From an uncultured delta proteobacterium (GTDB taxonomy: Bacteria; Desulfobacterota; Desulfobacteria; Desulfobacterales; SG8-13), in contig CAWKCK010000018.1 of the NCBI GenBank assembly GCA_963848135.1, positions 572,938-636,937 of the forward strand: a stretch of 64,000 nucleotides of DNA. The letters run 5' to 3'. How positions within the stretch are numbered: the first letter of the stretch is position 1; each line of letters starts with the position of its first letter. This document shows positions 57,001-64,000 of this stretch, one piece after another. The position numbers are program-made.

Positions 57001-60000
57001 GCTCGAGTTCATAAAAGAAAATCCCAATTTCCTCAACCGCTTCAATTCTCTTGACGGTATATCCGCCGAAAGACCACTGTGGATGAATACCGGGGTTGTT
57101 ACGGTCCTTTTTTTGATCCATCGCTAAATCCTTCTTCCCTCTCTATTTTCTATTTGGCAATGTAAACGCCGCGGCTCACCCGTTCAATTGAACCGTTTTT
57201 ATTCAGCCGAAAAATAATGTTGCGAACCTTTTTGTCATCAAAACCCGTTTTGGCTTTGATTTCCGGCATCCCGGCCCCCTGTTTCAGTCCGCGAATCACC
57301 TCCAGGACCTGCTCAACGGCAGAAGAACTGGTTCGCGACCATGGTTTTCTAGCCGTGCCGGAACTCGCAGCGGATCGGCGCTTACGCCTTGTCGATTGAA
57401 TCGATTTGATTTGCTTTTCGATCTGATCCAAACGGGTCATCAAGCGTTCGACATCTTTGGTTGTGGGTATTTTGTAATTGTGTATGAAAAATTTTACCAT
57501 TGCATCAAAACTGATGTTTTTTGCCTTGCGCTTTGCCATGGAGATCCTCCTCTACGAAAAGGGTGACAGCAAATGTATTTTTCCAAAAAGAGAAAAACCG
57601 AAATAGCAATCTGCTAAAACTATTGAACATCATATTAAAAGTCAAGCCGCTGAACGTTTAGACGATTACAGGTTTCAACACCAGTTTTAAATTAATTTTA
57701 AGACATTATAAATTAAAATGATTAGATGGCTCACTTTAACCCAAATTGAGCGATTTTCAAGTTTGCCGCAGGTACAAGGGAAATGTCGTTCCGCTATAGT
57801 GAGCTATACAGGACGGCATTTGACGCCGTAGATGCGGTGACCCGCCTAAGGCGGATAAAAATTGGAAATCCCGGAGGGTTTTATATTATCGAAATTCCGA
57901 CGGGCAGAATTCCTTATTTTTATTGGTGATTTTCATATTTCAAAAATATGAAACGCTAAATTTGGGTCTAAGTAAAAATTCCTGCCAGTCGCGACACCGC
58001 CGCTTGATTTAATATTTATATTGCTTTTCAACAATGAATTCCGAACAACGGCAAGTATTTTTGACAACCACGATATAAGCTGATTTAATCCGATAATTTC
58101 ACAACTCTTTTCAAAAAGAGGCTCAAGTGTAACCTTGAGCACCAGAAAGCCAATTATGAAAGGCGCCGGTTATGACCTCACCCCACGCACTTCTTAAGGC
58201 CTGGAACATCCGGGCAGACAAACGTCTGGGCCAGAATTTTCTGACCGATCCCGCCACTGCTGCAAAGATTGTGGCACACGCAGGCGTAACTCATGGAGAT
58301 GTCGTCCTGGAAATCGGAGCGGGCTTAGGAGCGCTGACCATACCGGCAGCCCGATTGGCTGCCAAGATGTGCGCCGTGGAAAAAGATGCTCGCCTCGTGG
58401 ATCTGCTGAAGGCCGAACTCCTGGCAAACAATATTACCAACGCCACCCTTTTGAACAGGAACATCCTTCAAATCGATATCCCCGCCATCGCGGCCGAATC
58501 CAGCAGAAAACTGATCGTCCTGGGCAACCTGCCATACAACATTTCCTCGCAGGTCCTGGTACAGTTAATTTCTTCTCGATCCGCCGTTAAACGCGCCGTG
58601 CTAATGTTTCAATTGGAACTGGCCCAACGTTTGACGGCCGCTCCGGGCGGGAGGGACTACGGTCGCCTTTCGGTAATGATTCAATATTGTGCGACAATTC
58701 GGACCATTACCCGCGTATCTGCAAACCAGTTTACACCACGGCCGAAAGTGGACTCGGCCGTTCTGAAAATAGATTTTAACAAGTCGGAAGGCCTCGATGC
58801 CGATGACGAACTTTTTTTCTTCAGTGTAATTCGGGCAGCATTCGGAAGGCGCCGTAAAATGTTGAAGAATTCTCTGGTAGGTAGTGAGCTGGGGATCGAC
58901 CCCGATGTCGCCCGGCAGGCCCTTGCAGACGCACGCATTGAATCGTCACGACGCGCCGAAACATTGGATGTGTCAGAGTTCCTGGCGCTCAGTGCCAGCC
59001 TGAAAAAGTTGTTTCATCGGTCATCCGCCGCTGGTGAAACCGGCCCTTAAACCGCGGCGGATCTCGAAAATATCCGTATCGTGGGGCACAATGGATACTA
59101 AAATGGCCGTGATAGACACCCGGAAGTTTTGCCCGTGATTACCGGATTGTGCAATTTACGCAGTTTCGGCGCTTGCATGTCCTGCCATTGTCCCCATTAC
59201 TCTACATGTGATCGGCCACACTGACCGTCCGATCGCCGAGCATATTTACGTAACTGCCCATCTCGTTATCATACCAACCGTAAATAACCGCCTGCGTAAC
59301 GGGAATCCTGACTATGGTATTGCTTAACTGCTCGATGACACGCTTATCAAGACTGGAAACATTTGCTAAATCAATGCTGGCTTCCGCCGTACGGGTGTGG
59401 GTTTCATACCCTTCGATGATGGCCGCCGCTCGCGGGACACCGACGATATCCCCTGAGACATTCTGCTTATCTGAATAGTGCAAGTATCCATTCGGATCGA
59501 TGGCGGCCGCCTGGCGGTAGACGTCATTGACGACCTTACGTCGAATGAGTTCCTGATCCGGTTCTTCCTGGAGGTCTACCACCAGAATGATGAGCGACCC
59601 TGTAGCGATCGGGACGCGTACGGATTCGGCGATAAAACCAATCTGCTGCATTTCAGGGATGACTAGCCGCAAGGCTTTGGCCGCACCGGTCGTGGTCAGA
59701 ATAATGTTGTTCATGATACTACGATTTTTTCGCAGATCTTTCTTCCCCGCTTGTGGCAGGCGGTCTAGAACTGCCTGTGAGCCCGTGGCGGCATGGACCG
59801 TAGCCATCGAAGCCGTCAGGATTTTCTGGGGTCCGAAGTGATCTAATAAAGGTTTTATCATATGCGCCAAACAGGTGGTTGTACAGGATGCGTTGGAGAT
59901 GATGCGGTGGCGGCGGGGATCATATTCATTGGTATTGATCCCCATGACTGTGGTGACAGCGTCTTGGGGTGTTGAACCTTGCACTTCCGATTTTTTATCC

Positions 60001-63000: not shown

Positions 63001-64000
63001 TCGTCAATCATTCGGCGAAGTTGATCTTCCGGCAGCGTCAACAGGGTTTGGAGAGCAATTTCTTTACGTTTCAGTTGATCCATGATCGCGTGGACCCCGT
63101 CGATATAGGGTCCGTGGGTATCGATCCGCTCGTAGACATCGGGTGGAACGACCTGTTTCAACATTTTCTTGTCGCGGGTCGCCCAGAAATAGAGCGTCGC
63201 TTCCATGAATGCGATAATCTGGTTGCTGCTCTCTACATGACTCTGCTTGCGTAAAAAGTGGATCAGGATGTCGCGGCGGCGCGTTATTTCATCGATACGG
63301 GTCGATATGTCTCGAAGGCGTCCTTCTGCACCAATATCATTGAAGTAGGACGGAAATAGTCGTGTCATTTGTTTAGTTAGGTTGTATACCGGACCGACGT
63401 CACTGTTCAGAAATCGGGTGATGTCGCGTGGGAAAAGGTCGGTATCCCTTATGAATACGCCACTCAGTGCCAGGTGGATAATGAGAACCGATATGAGCCG
63501 GGTCGACCACTTGGGGTTTAGCTCGATCAACGCCAGCCAGGTTCGAATGTTCTGTATGTGGGCATTGTTAACCTTGATCTGCCAGTCTTCATCGACGCCT
63601 CTGATGCGTGGTGCTTGAAACGGCAACTCGATGACCTGATCGATAAAAAAATTGACCAGTTCACTATCATCGGTTCTATAGACGCCTTTGCCCATGGTCA
63701 GCACACAGTTCAATGCCGTGGCAGGAAAACTGAGCGCTTGTTTTTGAAGGATGGTGAAAGTCTTGCGGATCAGTCTGCGGATATTCAGATCCGATTCATT
63801 TGAAATAAGCCAACTGACGGTTCGGTTAATATCCCGCAAAGCCTCTTCGTGAATGATCGAAAGCCCGGAGGTGGCCATCATGTGAAACAGGAATATAATT
63901 TTCCATTGATTTCCATGAGTTTTTCCACCGGCTACCAACAGTTTCTGGGGTGTCTGACGGTATATCTCAACGATTTGTCCGTATCCGGGGAGCGCGAGCA

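Follow-up and report, generated by a model that had tools for sequence, protein, structure and literature searches.

A gene pair near the end of the window, the stretch of 64,000 nucleotides from an uncultured delta proteobacterium (Desulfobacterales) that was analysed, very probably encodes a dikinase with a new acceptor domain that is functionally coupled to a paralog of GAPDH. The first protein carries the name pyruvate, phosphate dikinase (PPDK) in databases, but the domain that binds PEP and pyruvate is missing and a helical region of about 900 residues is found in its place, at the other end of the protein. The genome-wide survey's note had read the pair as an uncharacterised phosphotransfer/redox module, and this reading is supported by the analysis below, in which domain content, conservation and gene coupling are direct observations. 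We found no description of a dikinase/GAPDH pair in the literature.

Domain organisation of the dikinase-like protein

The dikinase-like gene is located on the reverse strand and encodes 1396 amino acids from its ATG in the whole contig. The window holds its 3' part only (60576..64000, i.e., the stop codon and residues 257-1396), and the start lies 766 nt outside (L001:9704). Pfam identifies only two domains in the full protein, PPDK_N (PF01326, residues 952-1179, 91.2 bits) and PEP-utilizers (PF00391, residues 1305-1384, 58.1 bits). Neither PF00162 (PGK) nor PEP-utilisers_N, the PTS Enzyme I type, is among the Pfam matches of this protein.

The PPDK-type ATP-grasp domain, which binds nucleotide and phosphate, covers residues ~910-1250 (61017..62039, reverse strand), as seen from the alignment to positions 17-337 of the TIGR01828 profile and from the colinearity with 1kbl. 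It is followed by a phosphohistidine swivel domain at residues ~1268-1392 (60591..60965, reverse strand), delimited by Pfam, NCBIfam, the alignment to PPDK and superposition. In the translation, the swivel motif GGVTSHA is found at 60756-60776 on the same strand, with the codon of the catalytic His1336 at 60759-60761.

The C-terminal ~490-496 residues are colinear with residues 17-509 of the Clostridium symbiosum PPDK (1kbl, E = 4.6e-87). Structurally, the AF2 model of this region aligns to 1dik and 1kbl with a Z-score of 41 (rmsd 2.3-2.4 Å, 470-476 residues, 34-36% identity), and for the swivel domain the match to the PPDK phosphoryl carrier domain 2fm4 has a Z-score of 17.1. In the model the swivel domain is docked at the ATP site, i.e., in a 1dik-like state. 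In the alignment of relatives, K914, R986, E1230, Q1245 and R1247 of the ATP-grasp domain are invariant, and so are the S, H and A of the swivel motif in all 35 dikinase sequences aligned. Both catalytic modules of the His-swivel dikinase superfamily are thus present with conserved active-site residues, and the claim of the survey that the protein has an ATP-grasp and a swivel domain holds.

The protein is still not a PPDK, as the survey had also stated. Pfam scans of the query and of 23 distant representatives found PEP-utilizers_C (PF02896), the PEP/pyruvate TIM barrel of PPDK, in none of them, and the protein stops ~55 residues past the catalytic His. In NCBIfam, the PPDK equivalog TIGR01828 scores 391.3 bits, below its cut-off of 843.45. 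What the two proteins (EC 2.7.9.1 in the case of PPDK) have in common is the ATP-grasp domain with its ATP-site residues, the linker and the swivel domain with its TSH motif. The helical region ahead of the ATP-grasp domain and the paired GAPDH paralog exist in the module only.

Other members of the superfamily differ in further ways. In the rifampin phosphotransferase RPH-Lm (5hv1-5hv3, 5fbs-5fbu), the ATP-grasp domain and the swivel His also serve a family-specific acceptor domain, and the structural match to RPH has a Z-score of 25.3 over 347 residues. However, the acceptor domain of RPH is located between the ATP-grasp and swivel domains, while the proposed one here is N-terminal and has no relationship to that of RPH. 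The nucleotide domain is also much closer to the Pi-using PPDK than to RPH or PEP synthase, the C-terminal region scoring 295 bits to PPDK and 55 bits to PEP synthase. NCBIfam matches to RPH (NF041857), the PRK06241 group and PigC/RedH are weak, with 17-35 bits against cut-offs of 866-1350. PTS Enzyme I shares the phosphohistidine swivel domain (Z-scores of 10-13 to its N-terminal domains), but its donor is PEP, whereas judging from the sequence the donor here would be ATP through the ATP-grasp domain. The alpha-glucan, water dikinase has starch-binding modules and a His domain that precedes the C-terminal ATP domain. Here the order is the opposite, ATP-grasp and then His domain, and Pfam scans of the dikinase-like protein down to E = 10 gave no carbohydrate-binding family.

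A conserved core in the N-terminal region

The first ~900 residues have no real family match in Pfam and no fold match, as the survey had reported, and this is still so when the core is folded alone (AF2, pLDDT 84.6). Neither the fold search nor Pfam gave a match to DhaL or DhaK.

Conservation of the N-terminal region peaks at residues 380-540 and 660-800. We therefore delimit, at the conservation peak, a core of residues 375-810 (62337..63644, reverse strand) and propose that it is the acceptor, or third catalytic, site. The helical region before it is less conserved, with residues 257-374 inside the window (63645..64000, reverse strand) and residues 1-256 outside. Translation of the core shows the motifs DTDLFPRD (63423-63446) and KRHITIDIPSMYG (62682-62720), both on the reverse strand, and further motifs are IGAEG and HFLRKQSHVES. 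Invariant in the core are D441, D443, R485, D492, R506, K507, H510, K615, Y616, K683, H685 and S692.

The AF2 model is confident elsewhere, but two of the conserved core motifs are found on loops of low confidence, and the DTD motif comes after a short strand. A DxD pair together with a cluster of invariant Arg, Lys and His residues on two flexible loops is a pattern that fits a site where phosphoryl groups are transferred to or from an anionic ligand with the help of Mg, and we take the N-terminal core to be the acceptor site for the phosphate of His1336~P.

A long GAPDH paralog with an altered cofactor site

Downstream of the dikinase-like gene and on the same strand lies the long GAPDH paralog (59202..60479, stop codon included), a 425-residue ORF from the first ATG. 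The second ATG (60473) gives a protein of 423 residues, and orthologs back that start. The paralog contains Gp_dh_N and Gp_dh_C (PF00044, 55.4 bits; PF02800, 91.2 bits) and is 38% identical to the canonical GAPDH of the same genome in an alignment of 11 sequences. In NCBIfam it scores 316.7 bits to the GAPDH-I equivalog TIGR01534, which has a cut-off of 367.2. The translated active-site motif ASCTT is located at 59877..59891 with the catalytic Cys codon at 59883-59885. ORF, scans and alignments agree with the earlier description of a long paralog that keeps the catalytic Cys and His.

The paralog shares the Cys/His dyad and the anion-site residues with Type I GAPDH. Among 35 aligned paralogs, S196, C197, T198, T199 and the catalytic His are invariant and WYDNE is kept; T230, R286 and the TTTGAAKA stretch, belonging to the substrate and inorganic phosphate sites, are conserved. 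Mapped to GAPDH numbering, which we take to be that of Geobacillus stearothermophilus with T179, R195, R231, T208 and G209 as presumed substrate and phosphate residues, the 35 paralogs share S148, C149, T150, H176, T179, R231, Y311, N313 and E314 without exception, and T208 and G209 are also conserved. In six of the seven paralogs of the 11-sequence alignment, Lys takes the place of R195, a conservative change. As the residues for glyceraldehyde-3-P (G3P), 1,3-BPG and phosphate are conserved, the substrate of the paralog should be G3P/1,3-BPG or a very close compound.

The paralog differs from Type I GAPDH at two levels. The ~80-90 extra residues are found in five family-specific insertions that contain invariant residues (R139-G140-H141, F155-K156 and E357-T358-H359-x-R361-T362). 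Further, Asp32, the residue that selects NAD over NADP in GAPDH, is absent: all seven aligned paralogs have a G-R insert, N-x-G-R-x, after Asn31, compared with N-D in the four canonical GAPDHs. This suggests that the cofactor site is NADP-like and that the paralog may use NADP(H). The NADP-dependent, gluconeogenic form of GAPDH is the GapB type.

The pair is conserved across phyla

In the window, 96 nt (60480..60575) separate the stop codon of the dikinase from the first ATG of the paralog, and no promoter-like site was reported within this spacer. In a related organism, one contig of an RNA-library run covers both genes.

The survey had proposed that the two genes are a conserved module, and this is confirmed on a broader set of loci. 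Of 92 unique related loci, 88 have the paralog downstream of the dikinase, and at 86 of these it is within 500 nt and on the same strand. The remaining four, which seemed to be without the paralog, lack the adjacency only, as all four genomes carry the paralog elsewhere. In the Myxococcota branch, the paralog is directly downstream in each of the five genomes tested. Even in the most distant clade (33-45% identical; Bacteroidales, Cloacimonadota, Clostridia and others), 14 of 16 loci have it no more than ~3 kb away; the other two, both from Bacteroidales, have no paralog within 5 kb of the dikinase. The adjacency is far above chance, and the pair is a single operon of ancient origin whose genes are inherited together.

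Apart from the paralog, we found near the dikinase loci no conserved partner, no regulator gene and no conserved pathway-specific neighbour. In four of the 16 distant-clade loci, a canonical GAPDH is located directly beside the module, which links the module to the GAPDH reaction in glycolysis/gluconeogenesis. A glycogen phosphorylase gene adjoins it in one of the 16 (L160). According to Pfam, a hemerythrin domain is fused N-terminally to 2 of the 23 distant representatives, and in Myxococcota it is above the Pfam cut-off in three of seven loci.

The best 120 relatives of the dikinase are 59-93% identical and mostly 1390-1400 residues long, which matches the survey. The family comprises 594 clusters at 50% identity and is present in 304 of 400 genomes of the window's own class (a sample with completeness of at least 90%, all labelled as the same order). 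It is also present in several other phyla, reaching well past the host phylum, and is not tied to sulfate reduction. Cultured carriers exist, e.g., Desulfobacter curvatus DSM 3379 (L114).

The module exists alongside the standard enzymes. As noted in the survey, the genome of the window also holds a canonical GAPDH and a canonical PPDK, the latter with PEP-utilizers_C, and it has one PGK. A canonical GAPDH was found in all 37 near-complete carrier genomes checked, and PGK in 9 of 10. The exception (G006) is without PGK, TPI and canonical GAPDH, which we read as an incomplete assembly. The canonical gap and pgk genes are themselves neighbours in two Myxococcota chromosomes.

A possible dikinase route between 3-phosphoglycerate and 1,3-BPG

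We suggest that the PPDK machinery, which is retained in full for both initial partial reactions, would catalyse ATP + Pi + enzyme-His -> AMP + PPi + enzyme-His~P, where the use of Pi and PPi is assumed from PPDK. The helical N-terminal region would stand in for the PEP/pyruvate barrel, with residues ~380-800 of the core as the third site, at which His1336~P would pass its phosphate to an anionic acceptor. The product may be an acyl-phosphate that the paralog GAPDH reduces or, in the reverse direction, one that the paralog forms and the dikinase consumes. In the simplest case, the reactions would be 3-PG + ATP + Pi <-> 1,3-BPG + AMP + PPi followed by 1,3-BPG + NAD(P)H <-> glyceraldehyde-3-P.

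By textbook standard free energies, ATP + Pi + 3-PG -> AMP + PPi + 1,3-BPG is near equilibrium, and the dikinase reaction is ~14 kJ/mol more favourable than PGK in the gluconeogenic direction. The pair would then be a dikinase-type parallel to pgk-gap in anaerobes, in the same way as PPDK parallels pyruvate kinase. Both pairs consist of adjacent, co-oriented phosphotransferase and GAPDH genes, and the proposed node, 3-PG <-> 1,3-BPG <-> G3P, is the same. However, the dikinase has no homology to PGK, and by analogy its donor chemistry would be ATP -> AMP + PPi via a phospho-His and not the formation of ADP.

That the acceptor is specifically 3-PG/1,3-BPG can be proposed only tentatively, and it is a little more doubtful still that the pair is a 3-phosphoglycerate, phosphate dikinase, made up of the nucleotide and swivel domains of PPDK and an acceptor domain of new fold, with a dedicated NADP-type GAPDH, i.e., a new central-carbon reaction. 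About 900 residues is much for the binding of a C3 acid, and their lack of a fold or family match leaves nothing from which to read the ligand. In no case does the module clearly take the place of the standard enzymes. Further, the AF2 model places the swivel at the ATP site and does not show His1336 reaching the N-terminal core. The hemerythrin fusions in part of Myxococcota fit a sensing or regulatory role equally, and the two Bacteroidales loci without a nearby paralog also count against this reading.

Alternative explanations

The same logic could apply to another acid. The dikinase would then activate a different anionic carboxylate, for example 4-phosphoerythronate, 2-phosphoglycolate or a sulfonated or otherwise substituted glycerate, and the GAPDH-like enzyme would reduce the acyl-phosphate to an aldehyde, so that two enzymes together would reduce a carboxylate, as Asp kinase/ASD and ArgB/ArgC do. 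All coupling features fit this equally, the paralog is under the GAPDH-I cut-off, its five insertions with invariant residues could reshape the substrate pocket, and the carriers always retain a canonical GAPDH as well. We nevertheless consider it rather unlikely, given that all known G3P/1,3-BPG and Pi residues are conserved in the paralog, that no conserved neighbour points to a different substrate and that the canonical GAPDH beside the module at four distant loci indicates the triose-phosphate node. A lower probability still is given to a regulator or protein phosphotransferase, in which His1336~P would phosphorylate a residue of the paralog or, in a His-to-Asp relay, an Asp of its own core, so that GAPDH activity is switched by energy charge (ATP/AMP/PPi) or O2. 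PTS Enzyme I uses the same swivel module to phosphorylate HPr, which docks there on a helical subdomain; hemerythrin is typical of sensors; and the DTD motif after a short strand bears a loose likeness to phospho-Asp sites. Against this, the conserved cluster of R, K and H on loops resembles a small-anion site more than a docking surface, two phosphoanhydride bonds spent per transfer would be unusual in signalling, and neither a regulator gene nor a conserved partner other than the paralog is found nearby.

It is improbable that the dikinase instead acts one step before GAPDH, phosphorylating D-glyceraldehyde, dihydroxyacetone or glycerate, with the product oxidised by the dedicated GAPDH. An operon would make sense here too, as one step would directly follow the other, and there is a precedent in the His-relay phosphorylation of dihydroxyacetone via the all-helical ADP-binding subunit DhaL. 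But no match to DhaL or DhaK was obtained, the altered cofactor site of a dedicated GAPDH would be left without a reason, and so many invariant basic residues point to an acceptor with a strong negative charge. Even less credible is a polymer dikinase similar to the plant glucan, water dikinase, whose N-terminus would bind glycogen, polyphosphate or another polymer and whose link to GAPDH would be indirect. Polymer-binding dikinases do have non-catalytic regions of similar size, and glycogen phosphorylase adjoins the module, though in one locus only; Pfam found no carbohydrate-binding module, however, the helical N-terminal region has a core that is sharply conserved and resembles a pocket, and the near-obligate pairing with GAPDH would be unexplained. 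Finally, the database name and the similarity of the C-terminal third to PPDK could be taken to mean an ordinary PPDK that by accident lies next to an ordinary GAPDH. The chance of this is negligible: the missing PEP/pyruvate domain refutes the identity as PPDK, the equivalog score is below the cut-off (391 against 843), the genome has a true PPDK elsewhere, and the adjacency is conserved across phyla.

Implications

The name pyruvate, phosphate dikinase is wrong for this family, and it leads metabolic reconstructions of anaerobes from sediments, digesters and the gut to count too many PPDKs. The family has as its near-obligate partner an isoenzyme of GAPDH, which is among the best-known glycolytic enzymes, and whatever its acceptor, the pair is a well-defined, directly testable target. 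If the acceptor is 3-PG/1,3-BPG, the dikinase would add a new enzyme to a reaction of glycolysis/gluconeogenesis that is credited to PGK alone. Many anaerobes, among them Desulfobacterales, syntrophs, Bacteroidales, Cloacimonadota and Clostridia, would then have a PPi/AMP-linked alternative to PGK. In PPi-dependent glycolysis/gluconeogenesis this enzyme would fill a gap beside PPi-PFK and PPDK, and it would matter for how anaerobes with little energy manage their PPi and AMP.

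The C-terminal third of the large protein

The large protein is a member of the His-swivel dikinase superfamily; in databases it goes by the name of either pyruvate, phosphate dikinase or 'PEP/pyruvate-binding domain-containing protein'. In Pfam it matches PPDK_N (aa 952-1179) and the PEP-utilizers mobile domain (aa 1305-1384) and nothing else, i.e., PEP-utilizers_C is absent from the scan. Against the NCBIfam equivalog of PPDK, a curated whole-protein family, it scores 391.3 bits with a cut-off of 843.45. By their membership tests it falls outside PPDK, the rifampin-phosphotransferase/PEP-synthase-like group and glucan, water dikinase. 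The genome-wide survey's note had reported PPDK_N and PEP-utilizers as the only Pfam matches, 391 against 843 bits for the PPDK equivalog and 317 against 367 bits for the type I GAPDH equivalog in the neighbouring paralog, and all these figures were reproduced.

The final 496 residues are colinear with residues 17-509 of the Clostridium symbiosum PPDK (E 4.6e-87), while PEP synthase reaches just 55 bits. Structurally, residues 518-1022 of an AF2 model of aa 375-1396 (35-sequence alignment, pLDDT 86.8, pTM 0.75) align to residues 2-515 of 1dik/1kbl with Z 41 and an rmsd of 2.3-2.4 Å over 470-476 residues, while the rmsd to the maize or 2r82 conformers is 12-14 Å. Thus, the swivel domain of the model is parked at the nucleotide site, in the ATP-proximal state. 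The ATP-site residues K914, R986, E1230, Q1245 and R1247 as well as the swivel motif G-G-x-T-S-H-A (window 60756-60776, minus strand) are invariant or nearly so among 27 family members down to 27% identity and 35 locus-derived sequences. The protein stops about 55 residues past the catalytic His, at the point where the linker to the PEP/pyruvate barrel would start in PPDK.

As the front end is colinear with PPDK and the active-site residues are kept, the first two partial reactions of a PPDK-type dikinase are very probably retained. The closer sequence relationship to PPDK than to PEP synthase suggests that Pi and PPi, rather than water, take part.

The genome also encodes one PGK, a canonical GAPDH and a canonical PPDK, the latter carrying PEP-utilizers_C; the separate canonical PPDK and GAPDH reported by the survey are thus both found. 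Two further PPDK_N frames, of 820 and 1037 aa, are located on contigs C17 and C18 (G000:C17:179272-180189, minus strand, and G000:C18:382973-384115, plus strand). Neither matches PEP-utilizers_C in a genome-wide scan and, judged by sequence, they are more dikinase-like proteins without the PEP domain.

The N-terminal region contains a candidate acceptor site

No Pfam match is found over the first 900 residues of the large protein. Conservation along the N-terminal region is uneven, being low in aa 1-380 with peaks at aa 380-540 and 660-800. The invariant residues include H403, D441, D443, R485, D492, R506, K507, H510, K615, Y616, K683, H685 and S692; they are located in the motifs DTDLF(Q/P)RD, IGAEG-LRD, HFLRKQ-HVES and KRHI---IPSMYG. 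An AF2 model of aa 375-810 alone, here called the N-core, is helical with one beta-hairpin (35 sequences, pLDDT 84.6, pTM 0.74), and pLDDT below 50 is limited to the IGAEG loop and the tip of the KRHI-bearing hairpin.

A Foldseek search of the N-core model against the PDB gave at best E 0.068 and TM 0.15. VIA-align against 48,161 chains found no domain-level match; its best hit, Z 8.6 over 105 residues, is a generic helical bundle and is rated by VIA-align itself as background for helical proteins. A profile search of the N-core against PDB sequences reached at best E 2.7, Pfam with E up to 10 returned sub-threshold noise only for three N-terminal pieces, and the ESM Atlas gave no usable match to aa 375-810 or aa 1-380. 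The earlier claim that this region lacks any family or fold match therefore holds for Pfam (aa 1-900) and for the fold searches (aa 375-810).

Mg-dependent phosphoryl-transfer sites that bind an anionic ligand are typically recognised by an acidic pair, numerous invariant basic residues and conserved loops that are mobile. Because the N-core combines all of these in its sequence and model, we infer that it may be the acceptor site that takes the place of the PEP/pyruvate barrel.

The GAPDH paralog

The paralog reaches 316.7 bits against the NCBIfam equivalog of type I GAPDH, with a cut-off of 367.2. It was compared with solved GAPDHs, 34 orthologs and four canonical GAPDHs. In the numbering of the Geobacillus stearothermophilus GAPDH, S148-C149-T150-T151, H176, T179, the T208-G209 stretch, R231 and Y311-D-N313-E314 are kept, so the catalytic Cys and His, already described as retained, are indeed present as C149 and H176. 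Residue 195 is Lys in six of seven aligned paralogs. The approximately 80 extra residues that the survey had counted correspond to five insertions, about 80-90 residues in sum, every one of which contains invariant residues, for example R139-G140-H141, F155-K156 and E357-T358-H359-x-R361-T362.

N31-D32, present in all four canonical GAPDHs, is replaced by N-x-G-R-x in 7/7 aligned paralogs. Loss of Asp32 with a nearby Arg is expected of a GAPDH that accepts NADP(H). From its sequence, the paralog should have an altered cofactor preference and, since the catalytic and phosphate-site residues are kept, should act on G3P/1,3-BPG or a closely similar compound.

The two genes are inherited together

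The paralog gene (window 59202-60479, minus strand, a 425-aa ORF) lies 3' of the large gene on the same strand, with a spacer of 96 nt. The large gene is open from window 60576 to 64000 (minus strand) and continues past the window edge; on the whole contig (locus L001) it encodes 1396 aa from an ATG at L001:9704.

The pairing that the survey had described as conserved is confirmed in a wider set of loci. Loci were fetched by the N-terminal region or the family alignment, and in 97 the 3' end of the large gene is complete and followed by at least 1400 nt; after removal of five same-contig duplicates, 92 unique loci remain. A paralog at least 45% identical is found downstream in 88 of these 92, and within 500 nt on the same strand in 86. 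In the four exceptions (L011, L014, L089 and L095) the paralog is located elsewhere in the genome, at 68-72% identity. The large proteins of the Myxococcota branch share 33-39% identity with the query, and in this branch the paralog is directly downstream in 5/5 genomes searched and in 8/8 loci of the alignment.

A more distant clade, mostly 33-45% identical to the query, was reached by an alignment query (A6), while the single-protein query P0155 retrieved no loci. The MAGs of this clade are labelled Clostridia, Oscillospiraceae, Bacteroidales, Sumerlaeota, Cloacimonadota, Myxococcales, Thermodesulfobacterium, Smithella, Desulfacinum and Syntrophobacterales. Here, a paralog (47-63% identical) is present within approximately 3 kb in 14 of the 16 loci with enough downstream DNA, co-oriented in 11 and convergent in three; the remaining two, both from Bacteroidales, lack one within 5 kb at the locus. 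Sequence identity is consistently higher for the paralog than for the large protein, e.g., 65% vs 50% in Desulfotignum.

A canonical, short GAPDH directly flanks the module in 4/16 distant loci, upstream in L159 (894-1928), L163 (3983-4981) and L169 (3842-4837) and after the paralog in L171 (~10661-11626), so that the two GAPDH types bracket the dikinase gene. In another locus, L160, the upstream neighbour is a glycogen phosphorylase gene.

Besides the paralog, no neighbouring gene is conserved across lineages. The downstream neighbours, rsmA/ksgA (window 58172-59050, plus strand, 242 bits), a 129-aa protein with weak phasin-like matches alone (window 57150-57539, minus strand, E 7e-5 to 3e-3) and a 999-aa M16/PreP-like peptidase (window 54122-57121, minus strand), are kept in close relatives only. 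On the other side, an HD-domain gene (L001:10448-11833, plus strand) and a rhodanese-domain gene (L001:11982-12587, plus strand) are divergent from the dikinase gene. The 726-nt intergenic region between them and the dikinase gene has no Rfam match, and a search for a riboswitch or leader 5' of the operon found none with E up to 1. Further upstream, just past the window end and on the strand of the dikinase gene, is a Wood-Ljungdahl cluster (L001:12833-18975, contig C18) encoding an AcsE-like methyltransferase, corrinoid protein gamma, a bifunctional ACS/CODH alpha/beta protein and the delta subunit; this synteny is common to just ~22-27 closely related loci.

In one marine-sediment metatranscriptome run, contigs of relatives (85-95% alike) cover 29 of 30 bins of the stretch, and one RNA contig of a relative, 529 nt long, runs from the end of the large gene into the start of the paralog; in this relative the spacer is 68 nt. 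This is weakly compatible with co-transcription of both genes, as the contigs come from relatives and DNA carry-over is possible. A complex prediction between the N-core and the paralog, run for this one domain pair and without controls, scored 0.00 in both runs.

Distribution of the family

An exhaustive search with the N-terminal region gave 594 clusters at 50% identity, and nearly all full-length members have 1350-1540 aa. Among the distant representatives of at least 1300 aa, 12/13 contain both PPDK_N and PEP-utilizers, and PEP-utilizers_C is found in none of the 23 distant representatives scanned by Pfam. The core profile is present in 304 of 400 sampled genomes of the window's class (at least 90% complete, all labelled 'same order') and is missing from whole families of this sample, e.g., 0/34 and 0/11. 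Two members binned as Bacteroidales and Anaerolineales (L061, L062) are 58-59% identical to the Desulfobacterales-type protein, vs 33-39% for the genuine Bacteroidales clade, which suggests mis-binning or recent transfer. Carriers available in culture include Desulfobacter curvatus DSM 3379 and D. postgatei (L113/L114).

All 37 near-complete carrier genomes checked have exactly one paralog ortholog (63-73% identical) and at least one canonical GAPDH, and PGK was found in nine of ten carrier genomes examined. A general replacement of PGK and canonical GAPDH by the module is therefore rejected. One of the 37, the complete genome G255, has a second long GAPDH paralog of 406 aa, 52% identical to that of the window (L154:7445-8665; G255:C1:3624474-3625637), with no adjoining dikinase gene and with an HTH regulator, a Nudix protein and glycosyltransferases as neighbours. 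The genome without a detected PGK is G006 (the genome of L011), a one-contig MAG of 2.5 Mb in which the large gene and the paralog are non-adjacent and enolase is present. As TPI and canonical GAPDH are undetected along with PGK, G006 is probably an incomplete assembly without the gap-pgk-tpi operon; a complete G006 would instead offer a natural test of gap-pgk replacement.

The idea that the module is specific to sulfate reducers, where it would recycle AMP and PPi released in sulfate activation, is weakened by the distribution. DsrB exceeds the cut-off in 0/5 Myxococcota carriers, and carriers include Bacteroidales, Cloacimonadota, Clostridia and Smithella. Because of these Myxococcota and the gut and digester lineages, the module is no speciality of sulfate reducers.

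Proposed function

We consider it quite likely that the large protein is a dikinase with a new acceptor domain that works with this GAPDH. In the simplest reading the two enzymes would be joined via the acyl-phosphate of the GAPDH itself: the dikinase would convert 3-PG and 1,3-BPG into each other, coupled to ATP + Pi <-> AMP + PPi, and the step between 1,3-BPG and G3P would be run by the paralog with NAD(P)H. This assignment of substrates is tentative, with the odds somewhat against it. It is suggested by the intact ATP/Pi-His front end, the conserved acceptor-like core, a GAPDH whose acyl-phosphate chemistry is intact, the near-obligate co-inheritance across phyla and the occasional flanking by canonical GAPDH. 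It does not explain why the N-terminal region is so large or why carriers also have PGK and canonical GAPDH.

The acceptor could instead be another phospho-acid or a polymer, or the dikinase could catalyse the step before GAPDH. Hemerythrin fusions favour a role in regulation or protein phosphorylation. P0162 and P0164 have an N-terminal hemerythrin domain, which exceeds the Pfam cut-off in 3/7 Myxococcota loci; the HHE fusion to the N-terminus of the large protein is seen at the 5' ends in L119, L120, L123 and L127 and is absent in L121, L124 and L126. Such fusions hint that the enzyme is controlled by O2, iron or redox state.

If 3-PG is the acceptor, the proposed dikinase would relate to PGK as PPDK does to pyruvate kinase. 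By textbook free energies, such a reaction would lie near equilibrium, and in the gluconeogenic direction it would be ~14 kJ/mol more favourable than that of PGK. Among the titles and abstract openings returned by full-text literature searches, no paper on the protein family or the gene pair was found. The catalytic chassis is known; what is new is the putative acceptor domain, matched by no known fold, and the dedicated GAPDH partner.
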